From an uncultured Candidatus Saccharibacteria bacterium (GTDB lineage: Bacteria > Patescibacteriota > Doudnabacteria > UBA920): a stretch of 64,000 bases of DNA. The DNA lies in assembly GCA_964521955.1 (NCBI GenBank), contig CAZFTX010000005.1:804-64803 (forward strand), in the 5' to 3' direction. A model generated the notes under the pieces. The model saw only the letters and a program-made list of their open reading frames with translations, was not told where the DNA came from and did not search any database. Of this stretch, positions 32,407 through 50,993 are shown in pieces (the stretch's first letter is position 1; the number at the start of each line of letters is the position of its first letter). Both the position numbers and the translations under genes were made by a program.

Positions 32407-32576
32407 AAATTGAAAGTTTTTTACTTGGAATTCTAACTGGTGAATTATAACTAAAATTACCGGTTTAAGTCAAGAAGCAAGACAGAATTAACCTAATCTC
32501 TAATTGTCCTAATTATTCAAAAAAATGCAAAGAAAGTTTTTAGGTTAATTAGTAATTAGGTCAATTAGAATAATTT

Positions 32577-35420: not shown

Positions 35421-38261
35421 ATGCGTGATGTTATCTCCATTCGCGGTGCGCGAATGCACAATTTAAAAAATATTAACGTAGACTTGCCTCGTAACAAACT
35501 TATTGTTATGACCGGACTTTCCGGGAGTGGCAAGTCTTCTTTGGCTTTTGACACTATTTATGCAGAAGGTCAAAGGCGCTATGTAGAAAGCTTGTCCGCT
35601 TACGCCAGGCAGTTTATTGGGCTTATGGACAAGCCCGACGTGGACAAGATAGAAGGTTTGTCTCCGGCTATTTCCATTGACCAAAAGTCTGCTTCTCACA
35701 ACCCGCGTTCAACTGTGGGCACGGTTACGGAAATTTACGACTACATGCGTCTTTTGTGGGCGCGTATTGGCGTACCTCACTGTCCGGTTTGCGGCAAAAA
35801 AATTCACGGTCAAACTTTGCAGGCTATGACCGACCAGCTTTTGGCTTTGCCTTCAGGTACAAAATTGGTTTTGCTTGCCCCGTTTATTAAAGATCAAAAA
35901 GGGGAGCATAAACATATCTTTGAACAAATAAAAAAGGCCGGTTTTGCCCGTGTTCGAGTTGACGGGACTGTTATGGATCTTTTTGAAGCCATGGGTCTTA
36001 GTTTAGACAAACAAAAAAAGCATAGTATAGAAGTCGTGGTTGACCGGGTGACAGTTTCCACTGAAGAAAAGGGGCGTTTGGCGGAAAGTTTGGAAAAGGC
36101 GGCTGACTTGGGCGACGGTTTGGTTTTAGTTTCCAAAACAGACAGTAAGGACGCTGACATTGTGCTTTCCCAAAAATATGCCTGTCCGGACGGACATGTG
36201 CAGTTAGCCGAACTTGATCCTAGGGATTTTTCTTTTAACAGTCCTCACGGTGCTTGTCCTGAGTGTAAAGGTTTGGGTACCAAGCTTACAGTTGAGCCTG
36301 ACTTGGTTATACCTAACCCAAAACTGACTTTGGCTGAAGGCGCGGTCAGGCCTTGGAGTAAAACCACTTCTAGGCAAAGCTGGTACATGAAAATTTTAGA
36401 GTCTGTAGCCAGGGAGTTTGGCTTTTCTTTAAATACGCCTGTAAAAGATTTACCGAAAAAATATTTAGATATTGTGCTTTATGGTACCGGAGATAAAAAA
36501 GTACACATGGTTATTGAGTCCACCACCAGTAATTCTAAAATAGACACTTATACTCCCTTTGAAGGCGTACTTTCTTATTTAGAGCGAAGATATTTGGAAA
36601 CCGACTCAGACTACATGCGCAGCGAAATAGAAAACTATATGCGGATTCGTCCTTGTCCGGTGTGTAAAGGTAAAAGGCTGAAAGCGGAAGTTTTGGCTGT
36701 GACTGTTGGTCAAAAGGGCATAGTGGACGTTTCGGGTATGACCATAGAATCTGCCAGCAAATATTTTACCGAACTTTTAAAACAGCTTTCTCAAAAAGAC
36801 CAGGCCATAGCTAAGCAGGTGTTAAAAGAAATTAACGCCAGGCTTTCTTTTTTGCTGAACGTTGGCCTTTCTTATCTTTCTTTGGACCGTACCGCCGACA
36901 CGCTTTCCGGTGGGGAAGCTCAGCGCATACGCTTGGCCACGCAAATCGGCAGTGGACTGACTGGCGTTTTGTATATATTAGACGAACCTTCTATTGGGTT
37001 GCACCAACGCGACAATGGCAGGCTGCTTAAAACTTTAAAAGATTTAAGAGACTTAGGGAATACGGTTATAGTAGTAGAGCATGACGAAGAAACTATTCGT
37101 GAAGCTGATTGGGTCGTAGACATTGGCCCCGGTGCGGGCAAGCACGGTGGGGAATTGGTTGGCGAAGGTACCCCAAAAGATATTGAAAAAAATAACAAGA
37201 GTTTTACTGGATTGTATTTGTCAGGGAAAGAAAGTATAGAAGTACCTAAGCGCAGAAAACCGGGTAACGGCAAAAAACTTTCCATAATCGGTGCTGAAGA
37301 ATTTAACTTAAAAAATGTAAACGTAGAAATTCCTTTAGGGAAGTTCGTTTGTGTTACCGGTGTTTCCGGCAGCGGCAAGTCCACTTTGTTAAACGATATT
37401 TTAGCACGGGCTTTAAACCGGCATTTTTGGGGAACCAAAGAAGAACCCGGCAAGCACAAGAAAATTTTAGGCTTGGAACATTTAGACAAAATTATTAACA
37501 TTGACCAAAGCCCAATTGGTAGAACGCCCAGAAGTAACCCTGCTACTTACACAGGATTGTTTACACCTATTCGCGAACTGTTTGCCGAAACTAGGGAAGC
37601 CCGCATGCGCGGTTACAAAGCCGGCAGATTTAGTTTTAACGTAAAAGGCGGGCGTTGTGAAAAGTGCGCCGGTGACGGGGTTATTCAAGTGGAAATGAAC
37701 TTCTTACCTGACGTGTACATTACTTGTGAAGAATGTAAAGGTAAGCGTTATAACCGCGAAGCTTTGGAAATACATTATAAAGAAAAAACCATTGCCGATG
37801 TTTTGGAAATGACGGTGGATGAAGCTAAAGTTTTTTTTGCCAGTATTCCCCAACTTTATAAAAAAGTGGAAGTGCTTTCCCAAGTGGGTTTGGGCTATAT
37901 GCACTTAGGTCAAAATGCCACCACACTTTCCGGGGGTGAAGCTCAGCGTATAAAGTTAGCCACTGAACTGTCACGTGCTTCTACCGGCAGAACTTTGTAT
38001 TTGTTGGACGAGCCTACTACGGGTTTACATTTTGCGGACGTAAAAAGGCTGATTCACGTACTTAATAAGCTTGTAGAAAAAGGCAACACTGTTGTAGTTA
38101 TTGAGCATAACTTAGATATGATTAAAACTGCAGACTGGATAGTAGACATGGGTCCCGAAGGCGGGGATAAGGGTGGTACTTTGGTAGCCGCCGGAACGCC
38201 GGAAGACGTGGCAAAAGTTAAGTCGAGTTATACGGGACAGTATCTTAAAAAAATATTATAG
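35421..38261 (+). CDS. uvrA: excinuclease ABC subunit A
   Basis: Start at [45 protein letters not shown]. The ORF-track N-terminal extension from 35310 was rejected. Two ABC ATPase modules with Walker [10 protein letters not shown] and the zinc-finger insertions are present. Confidence 0.95.
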
Positions 38262-38330
38262 AATTATTCTAAGTACGCTAATTACTCTAATTATTCTAAA
38301 ATAGATTTAGGACAATTAGAACAATAAAAA

Positions 38331-38378
38331 ACAGCCCGGACACCTCTGGAGTGAACCAGAGGGCCGGGTTGTTTTGTT
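38331..38378. terminator. bidirectional terminator between uvrA and PEP-CTERM gene
   Basis: CAGCCCGGACACCUCUGG...CCAGAGGGCCGGGUUGUUUUGUUG. Confidence 0.45.
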
Positions 38379-38404
38379 GCACGCGGCCAAAAGTTGGCCG
38401 CGTG

Positions 38405-38617
38405 CTACTTCTTGCGGTTCTTCCGCCACGCGGCAAACCCAATTGCCGCCACGCCGGCGCCCATGAGGCCGATGGTGGCCGGTTCGGGCACTTCGGAAGG
38501 GGTGCTGCCGTCGGTCGGTGCGCAGTTGTTGTCACTGCAGTCGGTGGCTTGGGCGAAATTCACGGAGCTAAGCAGAATCGTCAATGCGGTTGTGAGGAGA
38601 AGTTTCCTCATAGACAC
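38405..38617 (-). CDS. mini PEP-CTERM protein (signal peptide + ~20 aa Cys-containing mature region + PEP-CTERM sorting signal)
   Basis: 70 aa: MSMRKLLLTTALTILLSSVNFAQA/TDCSDNNCAPTDGSTPSE/VPEPATIGLMGAGVAAIGFAAWRKNRKK; roughly 60% GC. Confidence 0.7.
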   Translation of the reverse strand: MSMRKLLLTTALTILLSSVNFAQATDCSDNNCAPTDGSTPSEVPEPATIGLMGAGVAAIGFAAWRKNRKK

Positions 38618-38746
38618 CTCCTAGTGTCGGCTGGAACAACGCCATTTTTTAGGGCTTGCGATGAAACATGCAAGACCTTTTGACCCACAAGAAAATGAGT
38701 CCCTCTTTATGATTGATTTCGTATTCTACTACTTTTAGGGGTGGGT

Positions 38747-38868
38747 GTCAACCCAGTAATACAACATTTGATATTTAATAAAAAAATAGTGTTATGAAAT
38801 ATTAAGCTTTGTATAAGCATGTGTTTTTGTATAAATATAAAATCAAATGTTGATATACTGGGTCAACC
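38747..38868. repeat. 122 bp palindromic (MITE-like) element with ~25-30 bp terminal inverted repeats, copy 1
   Basis: GTCAACCCAGTAATACAACATTTGAT...ATCAAATGTTGATATACTGGGTCAACC. It is 97% identical to 39797..39917 and lies ~130 bp upstream of the minus-strand PEP-CTERM gene start. Confidence 0.7.
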
Positions 38869-38965
38869 TTCTTATGTTAAAAGAAAAGAGCGAACCGTCA
38901 CGTGACTGCGGTTCGCTCTTTTTGCGTTGTTAGGCGCTCTTGTTACTCCCGCATGGAGCGGAAGT

Positions 38966-39658
38966 CTAGAGCTTGTTGTTGCGTCGACGTCGGTGGAGGA
39001 ACAGCAGGCCTCCGAGACCTGCGCCCATGAGTACGTACGTGCCGGGCTCCGGAACTTCGCCCGGACGTTCATCGCCAAACAGGTACTGAGTGAATGTCAC
39101 AGAGTTGAGCCTTGTTTGACCGTTGCTGCGTACGCGAAGAAGCGTTTGTTCCCATGCTCCGAAAGCGCCGACGTTGTCGCGTAGAAACGTTCCCGCCGCG
39201 TAAGTGTTGTCGTACCAGTGATCCACGGATCCGTCGCCGTGAAGCAGGGTTTCCACCGTATGTGGTGTTCCGGCAACGCGCGGAGTGAGGTCAAAGAACA
39301 CAAACGTTTCAATCGCCGGTGCGTTGCTGTAGCGTTCGTAGCCGAGCAGAGAAGCGCCGAACAAGGATCCGTTTTGTGTACGCGGGTTGAGACCGTTGCT
39401 CAAGTTCTGCTGGAACATGTCGATGTTGGCGTTGGGATTGTCTTCGTAGCTCACCGACGCATAGGTTGAGCCGCTGTTGATGAAGATGCCGACCTCGGTG
39501 TTGGAATTCTGGGTGATGGTGATTGTGCCGTCGCCGTTGTCGGTAAACGTGCCGTCGCCGTATGTGGTCCACGTAAGACCACCGAAGTCAATGGTCGCGG
39601 CGTTGGCCGAGAGGGCCGCAACGGTCGCGAGAATCAAGAGAACGAGAAATTGCTTCAT
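38966..39658 (-). CDS. PEP-CTERM domain secreted protein
   Basis: 230 aa; signal peptide, Gly/Thr/Asn-rich body, C-terminal EVPEPGTYVLMGAGLGGLLFLHRRRRNNKL; GGAGG RBS; GC-rich codons. Confidence 0.8.
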   Translation of the reverse strand: MKQFLVLLILATVAALSANAATIDFGGLTWTTYGDGTFTDNGDGTITITQNSNTEVGIFINSGSTYASVSYEDNPNANIDMFQQNLSNGLNPRTQNGSLFGASLLGYERYSNAPAIETFVFFDLTPRVAGTPHTVETLLHGDGSVDHWYDNTYAAGTFLRDNVGAFGAWEQTLLRVRSNGQTRLNSVTFTQYLFGDERPGEVPEPGTYVLMGAGLGGLLFLHRRRRNNKL

Positions 39659-39796
39659 GACACCTCCGTGATGTGTCGGTTAGCACTACGCCTATTTTAG
39701 CCTTGCCTAAAAAATCCAAAGCAAGACTTTTTGCCTAACTAGTTATTAGGCCTCCTTATATAACGACTTATTAGTTTATAGTATTTCGGGCATGGG

Positions 39797-39917
39797 GTCA
39801 ACCCAGTAATACAACATTTGATATTTAATAAAAAATAGCGTTGTGAAATATTAAGCTTTGTATAAGTATGTGTTTTTGTATAAATATAAAATCAAATGTT
39901 GATATACTGGGTCAACC
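39797..39917. repeat. 122 bp palindromic (MITE-like) element, copy 2
   Basis: Near-identical to 38747..38868; ~140 bp upstream of the start of the 38966..39658 gene. Confidence 0.7.
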
Positions 39918-40194
39918 TTGTTAGGTAAATAAAAAAAGCCCCACGCAAATCGACGATTTCGATATTGGTGGGTAACTTTTTCGTTTGGAACTCCTAAGGT
40001 TCCTCCTGGTTGTGTCGCGTGTGAGTTTGCTTCGCACCCAAGCTCGTCTTAACGACGAACGGGAATTAGCCCCAAAGGGGCCAGTGGCTTTACATTCAAC
40101 CCTTTTTTAAAAGGATCTCCTCTACACACAACGGTTGTGGTTGTAAGATGCGTTTTCGGCGGTGCTCGCCTTGCGCACCTCATGATCTTGTTCC

Positions 40195-41520
40195 TCAAGC
40201 CTGCGCGGCTCGGGTGTCAATCACTTGTTGCGCGGCCTCCGAAGGGGGCGTGCTTGCGATGAGCCAGACTCGGCCGTTGGGATTGCTTGAATAACGGATG
40301 TTCAAACCCCTCCAGCCAAGACTTTCCATGCTCCTCCGAAGATCTTGGGCCTGTTCCAAGCCTTGTTTGCCGGCGCCGATTTGGACTTCTGCCGCGCCAG
40401 TTGTTCGGTCAATGTTCGGTTCTCGGTCAATCCCTTGTGAAAGCAGAAACTCCCTGAACTTTCCAACGAGCTCGTTTGGGGAATTCGCTTCAATTGGGAT
40501 AACCTTGTTTATTCTGGAAGGCAGTTTCGCCTGTTGTGGTCGCTTGTTTTCCTTGGAGTGTGCCCAAAGGCAGTATCCGAGTATAACAAGCAGAAAGAAG
40601 CAAGCGCCGCCCACTATTGAGCCAACCAGAATGAGGTTGTTGGTGGGTTGTTTTGTTACCACTTTCGCTTCGCCCTTCGCGAGACCGTTGCTGTCCTTGG
40701 CCGGAGCTTCTTCACAGTCAGCCGATGCGGCTGACATGATGTCAAAGCTCATGGAACCGTTTGGACTATTTGGCCTTTGGAAGCAGGGCATTTTGCTTTG
40801 CGGAATGGGCAGGGGCCCACGCCGGACAGCAGTTTGCGCAGGCGGGGGAGGAAGGGCTTTCGCAACTTGGGGTTTTGCCTGTTTCTGAACTGGTTGTTCA
40901 ACCTTAGGCGTTACTTTGGTTGCTATTTGCTTTTTCTCTTTTGCCGCCGTCGGCACTTTTGCCACTCCTGCCGGTTTCGGGGTTGCTTTCACCGCGACCT
41001 TGGCCGGAGCCTTGGGCGCGAGTGGTTTCGGAGCTGTTGCGACAACAGCCTTGGGGGCTGGAGCGGATTTCTTCACGGGAGTCGGGACAGCGGCCTTGGC
41101 CACTGCCGGCGACTTTTTGGCTGGGGTTCTGGTTTGGAGTGCGGGCTTCTTCGTGCCAATTGGTTCGGGCACGGGAGTCATTGCAGCCACGCCACTGTTG
41201 ACGTCGCTGACCACGTACTTGCCGGTTGGCATGTAGCGCCAAACTTCGGCGCGACAATTGCCGACAAACGCAACCTCGCTTCCAACTTCCGCCTTCGGGA
41301 AGTTGACTCGGATGAGCTTTTGGTTTTCCGGCGTTACCGTGACAGTGAACACCAGCTTTTCAACTTCGCAAAAGGCTCCGCGGAACATGCGAGCGAAGTG
41401 GCTCGCAGTTTGTCCGGGTGCCAAAATCACTTCCTGTGGCAACTTAACTTTCTCTTCTTGGGCAAGCCCAAGAGAGGAGAGAGCTGCTGCAAGAAGCAAA
41501 AGCCGAGATGTGTTAAACAT
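40195..41520 (-). CDS. Pro/Ala/Lys-rich membrane protein (signal peptide, PAK low-complexity region, TM, C-terminal globular domain)
   Basis: 441 aa; MFNTSRLLLLAAALSSLGLA signal, ~120 aa of AP/AK/PK repeats, TM LILVGSIVGGACFFLLVILGYCLW, then a 110 aa C-terminal domain. GC-rich. Confidence 0.55.
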   Translation of the reverse strand: MFNTSRLLLLAAALSSLGLAQEEKVKLPQEVILAPGQTASHFARMFRGAFCEVEKLVFTVTVTPENQKLIRVNFPKAEVGSEVAFVGNCRAEVWRYMPTGKYVVSDVNSGVAAMTPVPEPIGTKKPALQTRTPAKKSPAVAKAAVPTPVKKSAPAPKAVVATAPKPLAPKAPAKVAVKATPKPAGVAKVPTAAKEKKQIATKVTPKVEQPVQKQAKPQVAKALPPPPAQTAVRRGPLPIPQSKMPCFQRPNSPNGSMSFDIMSAASADCEEAPAKDSNGLAKGEAKVVTKQPTNNLILVGSIVGGACFFLLVILGYCLWAHSKENKRPQQAKLPSRINKVIPIEANSPNELVGKFREFLLSQGIDREPNIDRTTGAAEVQIGAGKQGLEQAQDLRRSMESLGWRGLNIRYSSNPNGRVWLIASTPPSEAAQQVIDTRAAQA

Positions 41521-41842
41521 CTTTTTTGGCCTCCTCTTCAGTTGTGAATCTAACTAAACTTCAGACCAAAAACTTCTGGTCCTGAAAAAAATCTAACTAG
41601 GTAGTAGCTTGTTAGCTAGTAGCTTTTTAGATACCTATCAGCAAAAGAAGTTTTTTTGATTTTTAGAACAATTAGGTAAATTAGAACAATTAGAATAATT
41701 CAGTATTTTTTCTTTTTTGACTTTACACTTTAACATTTTCTTTGATTTTTGTCAATGTATATTTTGCAGATTCTAATCTAAAGCGGGACCAGCTCCGTTA
41801 GAGGTTGGTTATTTTAAAAATAACCGTAAGCTCTAAGCGGGG

Positions 41843-41971
41843 GTTGACCCAGTAGAGCTACATTGCAAATATGTTTTTGTTTTATTCAGTATAAATAAGA
41901 GCATTTTTTTATAAAACGTTTAATTAGGAATTCAATTGCAATGTGATTCTACTGGGTTGACAATTTCTCTC
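41843..41971. repeat. palindromic (MITE-like) element, variant copy 3 (GTTGACCCAGTAGAG...CTACTGGGTTGAC)
   Basis: Shares the CCCAGTA terminal core and a CAxCATTGxAA inner arm with copies 1/2. It lies ~175 bp upstream of the third PEP-CTERM gene. Confidence 0.55.
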
Positions 41972-42146
41972 TTATATATTACGATGTTTGGTGCTACAGG
42001 GGTCGATTTTTTGATCCCTGTTTGTACGTTGTGTGTACACACTACGGTAGTTGGACAGCACTGCGCTGTCACAACTTACCGTCAACCGCGGTTCTTTAGA
42101 CCCCACCTTGAAGAGGGTGGGACAAATCCACGGAGGATTGAGTACC

Positions 42147-42854
42147 ATGAAGTTTAAGAGGAAGAAGCCCCAGACCATTGTGTCATGGGGTAAAATGATG
42201 TTTGCGATCGCTCTGATTGCCATGTTGGCCGGCCTCACGGCCGCGCCGGCGAACGCGGCGGTGATTGGACCAGGTGGATCTGGAGTGGCGTCTGATTTCG
42301 GAGTCATTTCCGGCACCGTCTTGGTGGAAACTACTGTGCTCGGGGTCGTGGGTGTTCCCACGGCAACCTTTACCGGTGATTACGCATACTCTGTGATTGA
42401 CGAGGGTGGCGGGATTCTCGCGTTTCTGTACCAGTTCAGCAACTGGGCCAGTTCCGATGATCCGGTGCTTCGCACGACTCATAGCTCATTCACCGGGTTC
42501 GTTACCGACGTTGGCTACACCACAGTCGTACCGGTTGGTACCACGGTGTTCAGCGCCGGCGGCGTAGCCTCGACGGATGTCTCGCGCAGTGGCAGTGGCA
42601 GTGTGGTTCGGTATGACTATGATGCGGGTGTGGATCCGGGTACGTTTACCTACATCATGGCCATTCGTGTCACTGCTGATTACTGGTCGCGTGGTGGTTC
42701 ATTCACGGCTCAAGATGGAAGCGTGGGAGCCGTGACGGCAGCTAATCCCGAATCGGTTCCCGAGCCCGGCACGTACGCGCTCATGGGCGGCGGCCTGTTG
42801 GCCCTCGCTGCCCTGCGTCGGCGCAACAAGGGAGGTGACGACACCTCCAACTAG
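42147..42854 (+). CDS. PEP-CTERM domain secreted protein
   Basis: Start at MKFKRKKP (GGAGG RBS; the ORF-track 42051 start was rejected). Signal/TM, Gly/Ser/Thr/Val-rich body, C-terminal SVPEPGTYALMGGGLLALAALRRRNKGGDDTSN. Confidence 0.75.
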   Translation: MKFKRKKPQTIVSWGKMMFAIALIAMLAGLTAAPANAAVIGPGGSGVASDFGVISGTVLVETTVLGVVGVPTATFTGDYAYSVIDEGGGILAFLYQFSNWASSDDPVLRTTHSSFTGFVTDVGYTTVVPVGTTVFSAGGVASTDVSRSGSGSVVRYDYDAGVDPGTFTYIMAIRVTADYWSRGGSFTAQDGSVGAVTAANPESVPEPGTYALMGGGLLALAALRRRNKGGDDTSN

Positions 42855-43098
42855 CGGTCTTCTGCTGACTGAGCCGAACCCCCGTTCGTAAGGGGTGTCG
42901 GACCGGCTCATGAAGCGGACGGGGAGAAGGGTTACCACGGCTCTTCTCCCTACGATTTCAAGCAGTGTTTAGTTTTGAGTTCGACCTGTACGCTGGTGGC
43001 GCAAGCTATCAATCGCGTTTGGGTCGCGCTGGTCGCAACTTATTGGTTACGGTCGCCCATCTCCAGTGGCGGTTGTTTCCTGGTTGCGGTCAGTATTT

Positions 43099-43139
43099 AG
43101 CGGGCGGGTCTCCACCAGAGACCCCCCGCCTCTTTTTTT
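43099..43139 (+). terminator. intrinsic terminator
   Basis: GCGGGCGGGUCUC-CACCA-GAGACCCCCCGCC followed by UCUUUUUUUA. Confidence 0.5.
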
Positions 43140-43179
43140 ATTCAACACCATTTTTTGACTATTTTTCCTTTACCTCGAC

Positions 43180-43213
43180 CACTATGATACTGTCCAGTAT
43201 CATAGTGGTTTTA
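43180..43213. repeat. 34 bp perfect palindrome AACCACTATGATACTGTCCAGTATCATAGTGGTT, copy 1
   Basis: Identical copy at 53576..53609; followed by TTTATTTTTT. Confidence 0.6.
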
Positions 43214-43980
43214 TTTTTTAAGTTTAATTGTTTGAATTTTAAAATATAATTGTTCGATGTTTTTTTGTTTCTATGTTTGAATGCTCGCATGCTCAAATGC
43301 TTGTATGTTTTTACGAAAGTCATGCTCTAGACAGGTTTGGGGGATTGTGATATTCTGCTTTTTACAAAAAGGGGGAGAAATAACAAAGAATTTTGGTCTT
43401 GGTCGCAGGGTACTTTGGGGAAGTGGTTTTCCTTAGGCCTTGTGACTTAGGGGTGGCAGGCGTTTTGTAAGAAGCGCAGTTTGTAAGACAGAGCCGCGCT
43501 GGTGAAGCTTGCGAGCGCCTGCTTAACCTTTTGGTCTTCCCGGACTCCAGACCCCTCTATGGGTACCGGGATTGGGCGGCGGGGTTGTTTCCCTCCATCC
43601 TCGCCGCTCCAAAATTTCTTCAAGCTCCCTTGCCCGCTCATGTGGGAGTCCATGAGTGCCGTAGCAGGGAAAAGTCCGGGTGAGTTGCCCCCAGCAGGCA
43701 CCACCCGGATCTTATTTATCCAGCACCATTTTTTGACTCCAGAAAATAATGCTGGATTTATCTAAAATTATTGTTCTTTTTAGAATAATTAGGTAAATTA
43801 GAATAATTTATTGGTGTTTATAAACCCTCTTTCCACATATTTTGTCCACATTTGGTGGATAAATACCCCTTTTACCCCCGCTATAGGCGGGCTTTTTTAT
43901 TTGCTAAAGTAATCCTACAAGTGTTTTAGTAATAGTTTTTAGAAACAAAATTTTAAAGAACCAAGGCTTTTTAAAAAAGC

Positions 43981-45204: not shown

Positions 45205-45252
45205 TGGTGAATTATTCTAAGTACCCTAATTGATCTAATTATTCTAAAAGGG

Positions 45253-45612: not shown

Positions 45613-45665
45613 TTGGGATTTATTTAGGTTAATTAGAGTAATTAGAACAATTAGAATAATTCAGT

Positions 45666-50324: not shown

Positions 50325-50993
50325 ATGCGCATGGTTTATTTGCGCTTTCGTGTAGTTTTGCTCGGAGCTCTTCTGGGCATCTTGCCAATTTCTCAGGCCT
50401 TCGGAGCCACGTTGACGTACGATTCTCTCACGGGAAGCACGGAAACGATTGGAACTTGGGGAGCACAAGCAACTGAGAAGTATGGTCAGACGACTACTGT
50501 ACCAGTCACACACACGCTTCTGACATCGTTTGCTTTTTCAATGAATTTCAACGGCGACAGCGCCGCGAGTGCAAACCTTCAGGTGCATGTGTACGGCTGG
50601 GACGGCAGCGCGCCAACAGGGGCGGCCCTTTGGTCCAGTGGCGTGTTGAACGCTTCCGGCGCCGGGTTCATTGACCAGTCTTTGAACATCGGTCTGAATT
50701 TGGTGGGTGGCCAGAACATTGTCTTGTACGTTGAGGCTCTTTCTGGTGACATTGCCGTATTCAAACGGCCGGGAATTTCACAACCGCTCATTGGGGTCGA
50801 CGTTTTTCCCGGAGGGTTTGTATTCCAGAATGGCATTGAGCCGTGGGTTCAAGATTTCATGGGTACTGACACCGACCTGGGCGTCATTCTCACATGGGAT
50901 CAAACGGAGGGCGGCGGCGGGGAAGTTCCTGAACCTTCTACGGTCGCTCTTGTCGGCGCTGGTGTTGCGGCGTTGTTGTTTCGCCGGCGCTAA
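50325..50993 (+). CDS. PEP-CTERM domain secreted protein embedded in pilus locus
   Basis: 222 aa (start may be the second ATG at 50331); signal peptide, then a C-terminal GGGGEVPEPSTVALVGAGVAALLFRRR; roughly 55% GC. Confidence 0.8.
   Translation: MRMVYLRFRVVLLGALLGILPISQAFGATLTYDSLTGSTETIGTWGAQATEKYGQTTTVPVTHTLLTSFAFSMNFNGDSAASANLQVHVYGWDGSAPTGAALWSSGVLNASGAGFIDQSLNIGLNLVGGQNIVLYVEALSGDIAVFKRPGISQPLIGVDVFPGGFVFQNGIEPWVQDFMGTDTDLGVILTWDQTEGGGGEVPEPSTVALVGAGVAALLFRRR

Follow-up and report, generated by a model that had tools for sequence, protein, structure and literature searches.

Short palindromic elements at the -35 hexamer of predicted promoters in Patescibacteria: a candidate MITE-like family

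Insertion-sequence ends that carry outward-facing -35 hexamers form hybrid promoters. Repetitive extragenic palindromic (REP) units are small hairpins in themselves, species-specific and abundant, and REP doublets (REPINs) are mobilised by RAYT transposases; ERIC/IRU elements measure about 127 bp, and ERIC elements are located in transcribed regions. Correia elements (CREE/NEMIS) possess a conserved core, occur in hundreds of copies in one genus, duplicate TA, which can supply part of a -10 box. These elements of Neisseria are short and palindromic, their ends form promoters together with flanking DNA, and their presence varies between strains (PMC2649163; review PMC3184786). Promoters, regulation and mobile DNA have hardly been characterised in Patescibacteria, i.e. 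the candidate phyla radiation (CPR). Here we describe a repeat family first seen in a 64-kb stretch of contig CAZFTX010000005.1 (hereafter the window) from an uncultured Candidatus Saccharibacteria bacterium of the GTDB lineage Doudnabacteria, where three palindromes precede three PEP-CTERM genes. We consider it probable, with considerable room for doubt, that these palindromes belong to a family of non-autonomous elements of about 120 bp, resembling miniature inverted-repeat transposable elements (MITEs), that are inserted at TTGAC in Patescibacteria. Such an element sits in, or directly 5' of, a TTGAC that forms the -35 hexamer of a predicted sigma-70-type promoter; with a TTGAC at either end of the element, the downstream copy would stay joined to the original spacer and -10 box, and the promoter would thus stay intact. 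In the window, three such elements would occupy the -35 positions of three PEP-CTERM genes within a GC-rich, strain-variable island.

All three window copies are imperfect palindromes of 118-121 bp (Table 1). Read in gene direction, the distal half comprises TTGAC, CCAGTA-5 nt-ACATT plus 4-6 more bases, and about 67 nt of AT-rich, non-conserved sequence, whereas the proximal half reads AATGT-5 nt-TACTGG and then G-TTGAC (usually followed by A), 17 nt and TAnnnT. A preliminary description of this DNA, made from its letters, had placed palindromes of 122-129 bp ahead of the PEP-CTERM genes; all three are indeed real, their proximal ends lie 135, 138 and 185 nt from the ATG (copies 1, 2 and 3, respectively), and each has the same orientation relative to its downstream gene. 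The terminal inverted repeats of about 25-30 bp reported there correspond to arms that pair over 25 bp with a 3-nt mismatch block, but the outermost TTGAC at the two ends is a direct, not an inverted, repeat, and the inner arm sequence given for all copies, CAACATTTGAT, applies to copies 1 and 2 (type B arms), with CTACATTGCAA taking its place in copy 3 (type A). The motif GTYRACCCAGTA, with up to one mismatch allowed, has six matches in the window, all with 0 mismatches, which are the arm ends at 38747, 38856-38867, 39797, 39905-39916, 41843 and 41950-41961; dinucleotide-preserving shuffles contain 0.98 matches on average, and 0/100 reach six. These six ends agree with the coordinates first proposed, except that copy 3 stops at 41961 rather than at 41971, the extra 10 nt being the last base of the -35 hexamer and the spacer. 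Copies 1 and 2 agree in 118/122 aligned columns (96.7%, the 97% noticed before) even though their flanks are only about 67% identical; copy 3 has about 62% identity to them, confined to the arms. A scan of the window with a covariance model of the family detected these three copies and none further.

Beyond the window, one genome per species from 185,579 species was scanned with a pattern that left the distal flank (left of ACCCAGTA) unspecified. It returned 35 loci, 24 of them plain chance matches in GC-rich or coding DNA and 11 with full extended arms. The latter include five contigs from three Saccharibacteria metagenome-assembled genomes (MAGs), the others coming from Doudnabacteria, Yanofskybacteria, the 'Patescibacteria group', two unclassified MAGs and a 2.9-kb contig binned as Omnitrophota. 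A pattern scan of metagenomes added 15 loci and, after removal of duplicates, there are 27 distinct elements, three in the window and 24 elsewhere. The family is restricted to Patescibacteria/CPR-type DNA, and the window organism itself has, apart from a strain-level match, named PilB homologues only in Doudnabacteria, Magasanikbacteria, Wolfebacteria and the 'Patescibacteria group'. The MAGs hold 1-2 copies each and the window holds three, numbers to be read as lower bounds, the scans having used exact patterns that require intact outer arms and under-sample members in which these have changed. Full-text searches of the literature with the arm sequences retrieved unrelated primers only, and those on promoter or inverted-repeat elements of Patescibacteria or on MITEs in CPR retrieved nothing relevant; the family thus appears to be previously undescribed. 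One more palindrome, in a Clostridia MAG (L035, 3357-3481), encloses a GC-rich interior between perfect 27-bp arms that start with CCCAGTAGTAGACTATT; it is probably unrelated, its flanks reading AAA/TAAC instead of TTGAC and the family model giving no match.

The unit common to all members runs from CCCAGTA to TACTGGG and consists of 25-bp imperfect inverted arms with the same TTGA(C) flanking both sides. The TTGAC direct repeat is found at both ends of 27/27 elements, and it also stands left of ACCCAGTA, where the pattern had left the bases free, in 11/11 true genome matches and in the three window copies. The elements have 23-42% GC and no open reading frame (ORF); 21/27 measure 118-122 bp in total (outliers are 112 and 126-131 bp), with an interior of 65-69 nt in most. 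The inner unit is found in both orientations relative to the promoter, albeit unequally (22 versus 5, p = 0.0015). Within the interiors, enriched k-mers are AT-rich words only, and a weak A[AG]GC recurs at about -19 from the proximal end in 8/26 elements.

What places the family in promoters is the sequence that follows it. TAnnnT lies 16-18 nt past the proximal hexamer in 22/27 elements, an arrangement found at 43/448 (9.6%) of the remaining TTGAC sites of that DNA (p = 2e-18); here and below, promoters are predictions, i.e. matches to the sigma-70-type consensus. A consensus promoter scan picked up all three window promoters exactly at the proximal TTGAC, which would give the three PEP-CTERM genes 5' untranslated regions (UTRs) of about 100-150 nt. 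The predicted promoters are presumably in use. Two further promoter arrangements were considered and rejected: a divergent promoter, because the TTGAC of the distal end is on the strand of the gene and leaves the opposite strand without a -35 hexamer, and a second promoter at the distal TTGAC, because the arm contains no conserved -10 box at a distance of 17 nt from it. Three unusual loci give additional hints that insertion takes place at TTGAC. At L033, the element is located at a TTGAC 11 nt upstream of the -35 hexamer that is actually paired with TATAAT. At L023 (6035-6300, identical to L043), two elements stand in tandem upstream of rpsF and have one TTGAC in common (junction TACTGGGTTGACCCAGTA); the second unit, the proximal arm of which (GCTGAGTTGACA) is decayed, escaped the covariance model and is the sole decayed copy seen. 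At L003 (2655-2694), and also at L028, the DNA directly upstream of the element holds a GC-rich palindrome of 24 nt, CCCCGCCTCTCGCGAGAAGCGGGG, between two TTGA; its reverse complement occurs at the second element of that Saccharibacteria MAG, and the palindrome may be a second small TTGA-associated palindromic unit.

Twelve genes downstream of elements elsewhere were identified: rpoB twice, infC, rpsF, guaB, mraZ, lexA, nrdR, secE, a csoR-type repressor, thioredoxin and khpA. All twelve are housekeeping or regulatory genes, with products including RpoB, IF-3, S6 and IMPDH; a sigma factor and a decarboxylase were judged by eye only. This bears directly on the proposal that a regulator specific to PEP-CTERM/exosortase systems binds the palindrome as an operator and co-regulates the island genes. 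The proposal draws on the fact that the window's only three copies precede three PEP-CTERM genes at a similar distance and in the same orientation. None of the 24 distinct elements elsewhere, however, precedes a PEP-CTERM gene, and the earlier statement that each island PEP-CTERM gene has an element holds for the three genes at 38.4-42.9 kb and not for a fourth window gene (50325-50993), which has a terminator upstream, followed by a plain TTGATT-17-TATAAT promoter. Moreover, gene 3 is preceded by type A arms and genes 1 and 2 by type B arms, and the window promoters are sigma-70-like, whereas the regulator described for PEP-CTERM genes is a sigma-54-dependent response regulator. A PEP-CTERM operator is therefore highly improbable: since the outside elements precede other genes and the fourth gene does without one, the association with PEP-CTERM genes is local to the window genome and no property of the family. 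Copies elsewhere, then, are unlinked to PEP-CTERM genes and have flanking direct repeats (putative duplications), an outcome that the preliminary description had equated with an ordinary MITE placed by coincidence; the placement is nevertheless systematic, on -35 hexamers.

Whether an element is present at a given promoter can vary, as the rpoB locus of Saccharibacteria illustrates. The rpoB promoter is filled in 2/8 Saccharibacteria (L011 and L028). The element is absent upstream of rpoB in all six further Saccharibacteria compared (L054-L059), the RpoB proteins of which are 82-89% identical to that of L011. Four of these six keep an orthologous TTGACA, a spacer of 16-17 nt, TAnnnT and the leader, with 69-76% identity to L011 over 110 nt from the -35 hexamer, and directly 5' of TTGACA they have unrelated sequence where L011 holds the element. 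Judged by these alignments, the four promoters can be taken as empty sites. As the empty orthologous sites already have TTGACA, the element would preserve a -35 hexamer rather than create one, so that the earlier suggestion of a repeat supplying promoter function stands only in that its proximal TTGAC is the predicted hexamer in 22/27 elements. Empty promoters carry a single TTGACA; filled sites carry TTGA(C) on both sides of the element, the repeat is invariant, and the upstream flanks cannot be aligned. The TTGAC repeat would represent either a target-site duplication or insertion beside a specific TTGAC. L028 is more distant from L011 than is the closest relative without the element (RpoB 89% identical). 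The inner units of L011 and L028 point in opposite directions and their interiors are unrelated, which looks like the result of separate gains at one TTGAC or of a gain after which the element was precisely lost several times. Separately, the rpoB leaders of L011, L054, L056, L057 and L058 have in common, about 30-110 nt past the -35 hexamer, the conserved blocks TTGGGGAnGAAGTATTTGT and CGCTTTAGGCGTAA, which suggests a conserved leader RNA or regulatory site.

Across the 27 elements, 94.6% of arm cells pair, ten pairs are changed on both sides, and 0/500 shuffles reach the observed covariation values. A conserved mismatch block (positions 14-16 in type A, GAGCT versus GAATC; positions 12-14 in type B, TATCA versus ATACA) interrupts the pairing, so that the two arms of each element are distinguishable. 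On the gene-sense strand, the fold continues through TTGAC via G.U pairs in 27/27 elements, two of these pairs (TTGA versus TTGA) being invariant and formed on that strand only, and all three window copies fold far better than shuffled sequence (z = -4.7 to -6.2). Could the arms matter through base-pairing, as a hairpin in a 5'-leader RNA, proposed already in the preliminary description, or as a hairpin of single-stranded DNA? Strong folding, covariation, the sense-strand G.U pairs and a mismatch block resembling a recognition feature all speak for a structured nucleic acid. Covariation is, however, expected alike for an RNA hairpin, a DNA hairpin and the inverted terminal repeats of a DNA palindrome. 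The predicted promoter, moreover, lies at the 3' edge of the element, which puts the palindrome upstream of the predicted start and speaks against a hairpin leader, and the feature just ahead of the element is in most cases the terminator of the preceding gene and in one case a tRNA gene. Flipped elements turn the mismatch block from G.U to A.C, and a hairpin needs no conserved loop length. Nor did Rfam, searched with 37.5-44.5 kb at E <= 1, return more than two sub-threshold chance hairpin matches, the better being WsnRNA46 with 27.5 bits against a gathering score of 65.3 (E = 0.028). A function through base-pairing is hence improbable.

What, then, do the palindromes represent? The MITE-like reading explains why a direct repeat is present, why the elements are so strictly tied to the -35 hexamer and why the genes downstream are unrelated; it also covers the two orientations of the inner unit, the patchy distribution and the near-identity of copies 1 and 2 between flanks that differ. 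Several traits expected of MITEs are found in the family, namely terminal inverted repeats, small size (112-131 bp), no coding capacity and presence or absence at orthologous sites, so that the MITE-like character proposed at the outset has held up, and the elements would have spread by transposition. A recent MITE burst was considered and rejected, the interiors of different elements being similar at background level only, even for two elements of one MAG; the exceptions are a locus sampled twice and window copies 1 and 2.

Several observations nevertheless weigh against the MITE-like reading. No transposase and no long element with the same ends was found, solo arms are absent from 293 kb of CPR DNA, and viral contigs gave no arm matches. 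The flanking repeat is invariant, which makes a target-site duplication indistinguishable from TTGAC carried at both ends of the element. No filled and empty pair with an alignable upstream flank was obtained, either at rpoB, where the upstream DNA of the closest element-free relative cannot be aligned, or from strain-level contigs, which matched the window or stopped short of the elements. Copy number is very low for a MITE. Other points on this side of the balance are, at the same time, those that favour a different explanation, namely that the palindrome is a cis-regulatory module of the host, which may have been domesticated from a mobile element: a conserved protein of Patescibacteria, or RNA polymerase, would bind both inverted arms and bend or loop the roughly 95 bp between their centres, and the proximal arm, abutting the -35 hexamer, would set promoter activity. 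First, the arms are nearly invariant across distant CPR classes, i.e. far more conserved than the interiors, a contrast due in part to search patterns that demanded intact outer arms. Second, length is tightly held, the interior included, although interior sequences are unrelated. Third, orientation is biased. Fourth, the strain-variant contig L052 holds copy 3 unchanged (100% identical) between non-coding flanks that have diverged by 2-8% (P about 0.006 to 0.08). Fifth, neutral relics of transposition should decay evenly, and there is almost no tail of degenerate copies: the covariance model found none in 235 kb, none is present in strain-variant loci around pilB, and a single decayed copy is known, which suggests selection on the arms. 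A host module would also fit the fixed position relative to the -35 hexamer, outlier lengths about one helical turn apart (112, 120 and 130 bp) and a weak AA/TT periodicity (A-tract phasing) at lags 7-11 (z up to 2.7). Taken together, this suggests that arms and spacing are under selection, which could be exerted either by a transposase acting on a very short element or by a host factor that binds both arms on double-stranded DNA.

A host module fares less well with other features of the family. It is patchy at the orthologous rpoB promoter (2/8), and only 1-3 copies per genome are seen, before functionally unrelated genes. Arm types A and B coexist in one genome while each element keeps matched arms, and the compensatory double changes at the ten covarying pairs would not be needed for recognition by a single protein of a single specificity. 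Both orientations of the inner unit are seen, and no candidate binding protein was identified. A host module in general is, therefore, possible but unlikely. We would rate as a little more doubtful still the specific version in which the element is a functional promoter module across Patescibacteria, with a conserved factor binding the two non-identical arms and holding a helically phased AT-rich loop of about 95 bp against the -35 hexamer. If this were true, the module would be a portable, copy-and-paste regulatory cassette homing to TTGAC in small-genome bacteria with few regulators, and horizontally acquired or hypervariable surface-protein genes, here those for PEP-CTERM proteins, would fall under the same control as rpoB, infC and rpsF.

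Three other known kinds of site were also rejected. An integron attC site, typically part of a cassette array near an integrase (no search aimed at an integrase was made), does not fit ends that read TTGAC...GTTGAC instead of RYYYAAC...GTTRRRY, nor downstream genes that are housekeeping genes with their own promoters; a Xer/dif-like site or an invertible promoter fails on end sequences, gene content and promoter position.

Table 1. Coordinates of the elements, predicted promoters and PEP-CTERM genes in the window
Feature	Coordinates	Strand	Details
Element copy 1	38747..38867	-	Type B arms; GC 23%; family covariance model 84.8 bits, E = 5e-15; minus strand: G-TTGAC, CCAGTATATCAACATTTGAT, 67-nt AT-rich interior, ATCAAATGTTGTATTACTGG, GTTGAC
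Element copy 2	39797..39916	-	Type B arms
Element copy 3	41843..41961	+	Type A arms; covariance model 104.6 bits; plus strand: G-TTGAC, CCAGTAGAGCTACATTGCAA ... TTGCAATGTGATTCTACTGG, GTTGAC
Predicted sigma-70-type promoter, PEP-CTERM gene 1	38723..38751	-	TTGACA-17-TAGAAT, 11/12; -35 = proximal repeat of copy 1
Predicted promoter, PEP-CTERM gene 2	39773..39801	-	TTGACC-17-TAAACT; -35 = proximal repeat of copy 2
Predicted promoter, PEP-CTERM gene 3	41957..41985	+	TTGACA-17-TACGAT; -35 = proximal repeat of copy 3
PEP-CTERM gene 1	38405..38611	-	68 aa from ATG, 70 aa from GTG at 38617; PF07589 E = 1e-7
PEP-CTERM gene 2	38966..39658	-	230 aa; PF07589 E = 1.7e-6
PEP-CTERM gene 3	42147..42854	+	235 aa; PF07589 E = 1.3e-6
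Fourth PEP-CTERM gene	50325-50993		Inside type IV pilus/pilin cluster; without element

The surroundings of the window elements have features of their own. From about 38300 to 43700, the window has an island in which coding DNA reaches 50-58% GC, against about 38% for the genome, and the spaces between genes are AT-rich. It is made up of the PEP-CTERM genes and the gene for a protein of 441 aa (40195-41520), secreted or membrane-bound and without Pfam match. The independent assemblies L001, L052 and L062 confirm the junctions of the island, which is therefore no assembly chimera; contig L001 breaks inside both copies 1 and 2, which would suit a transposon-like repeat. The hairpin terminator of gene 2, at about 38888-38919, directly precedes copy 1. 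The 5' UTRs of genes 1 and 2 (38612-38722 and 39659-39772, minus strand) are homologous (about 68% identical), having in common a hairpin (GTCTTGC...GCAAG) and, before the ATG, a block CCGACAC..GGAGGTGTC, without Rfam match. In L052 (582-1208), gene 3 keeps its promoter, its 5' UTR and its C-terminal PEP-CTERM anchor, and its middle (about 415 nt) is swapped for unalignable sequence, giving 208 aa versus 235 aa; on this comparison, gene 3 looks like a cassette-like hypervariable surface protein. At the place of the fourth PEP-CTERM gene, a relative with 97% identical PilB (L060, 6883-7374) has a different PEP-CTERM gene, of 163 aa and on the opposite strand, with a promoter (CCTTGACCCAGAGTAGA-...-TAAACT) that resembles a distal arm serving as -35 hexamer. 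Despite four PEP-CTERM proteins, a Pfam scan of 20 window proteins, which was not exhaustive, turned up no exosortase domain of the EpsH type; Patescibacteria are generally thought to have no outer membrane.

A second intergenic motif, TTAGAAYAATTAG, is unrelated to the element and occurs 17 times in the window versus 0.42 expected, often in runs with a 9-nt period (TTAGAACAA TTAGGTAAA TTAGAACAA ...). Its sites are 38247-38319, 41648-41715, 43765-43808, 45226-45247, 45633-45654, 16397, 20528, 32500-32521, 35398, 47218 and 56488. Several copies lie 10-40 nt ahead of start codons and others at gene ends, and clusters of the motif bracket and subdivide the GC-rich island.

What is the significance of a palindrome that sits so precisely in promoters? 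The family marks the -35 hexamer of real-looking predicted promoters with single-base precision and is conserved between classes, with Saccharibacteria and Parcubacteria-type lineages as examples. A mobile element of this kind would be able to enter promoters without destroying them, and it would also be a natural marker of promoter positions in uncultured genomes; if, instead, a host factor binds the arms, a regulatory mechanism common to Patescibacteria would be indicated. For the window, the tempting inference of a PEP-CTERM-specific regulon is removed, as the analysis gives it no support.

Among known systems, the Correia elements are the closest relatives in kind. Both are non-coding palindromes of about 100-160 bp with terminal inverted repeats of some 25 bp and a short fixed flanking duplication, both lie beside genes, in both an element end and its flank form a promoter, and in both presence varies between strains. 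No sequence similarity is apparent between the two, however, and, by the description of Correia elements, the present family differs in that its repeat is TTGA(C) at the -35 hexamer and in its lack of a conserved core; it is also seen in 1-3 copies per genome, with arms conserved across CPR classes. Small size, terminal inverted repeats, flanking direct repeats, the lack of an ORF and insertion polymorphism are likewise found in bacterial MITEs, for instance MITEAba12 and the Tn3-derived TIMEs (PMC6382973, PMC4133298), but the present family has no known cognate insertion sequence, its flanking repeat is invariant and located at a promoter, and it combines conserved arms and a tightly fixed length with interiors that are not conserved. 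With REPIN/REP doublets and ERIC/IRU it has in common long imperfect hairpin units of about 100-130 nt, an intergenic location, arms more conserved than the spacer and a long life (review PMC3184786); unlike REP units, its arms are not self-complementary. Finally, the combination of a terminal TTGAC with a -10 box in the flank, 17 bp away, recalls the outward-facing -35 hexamers of insertion-sequence ends, the difference being that here the empty orthologous sites had the hexamer beforehand.

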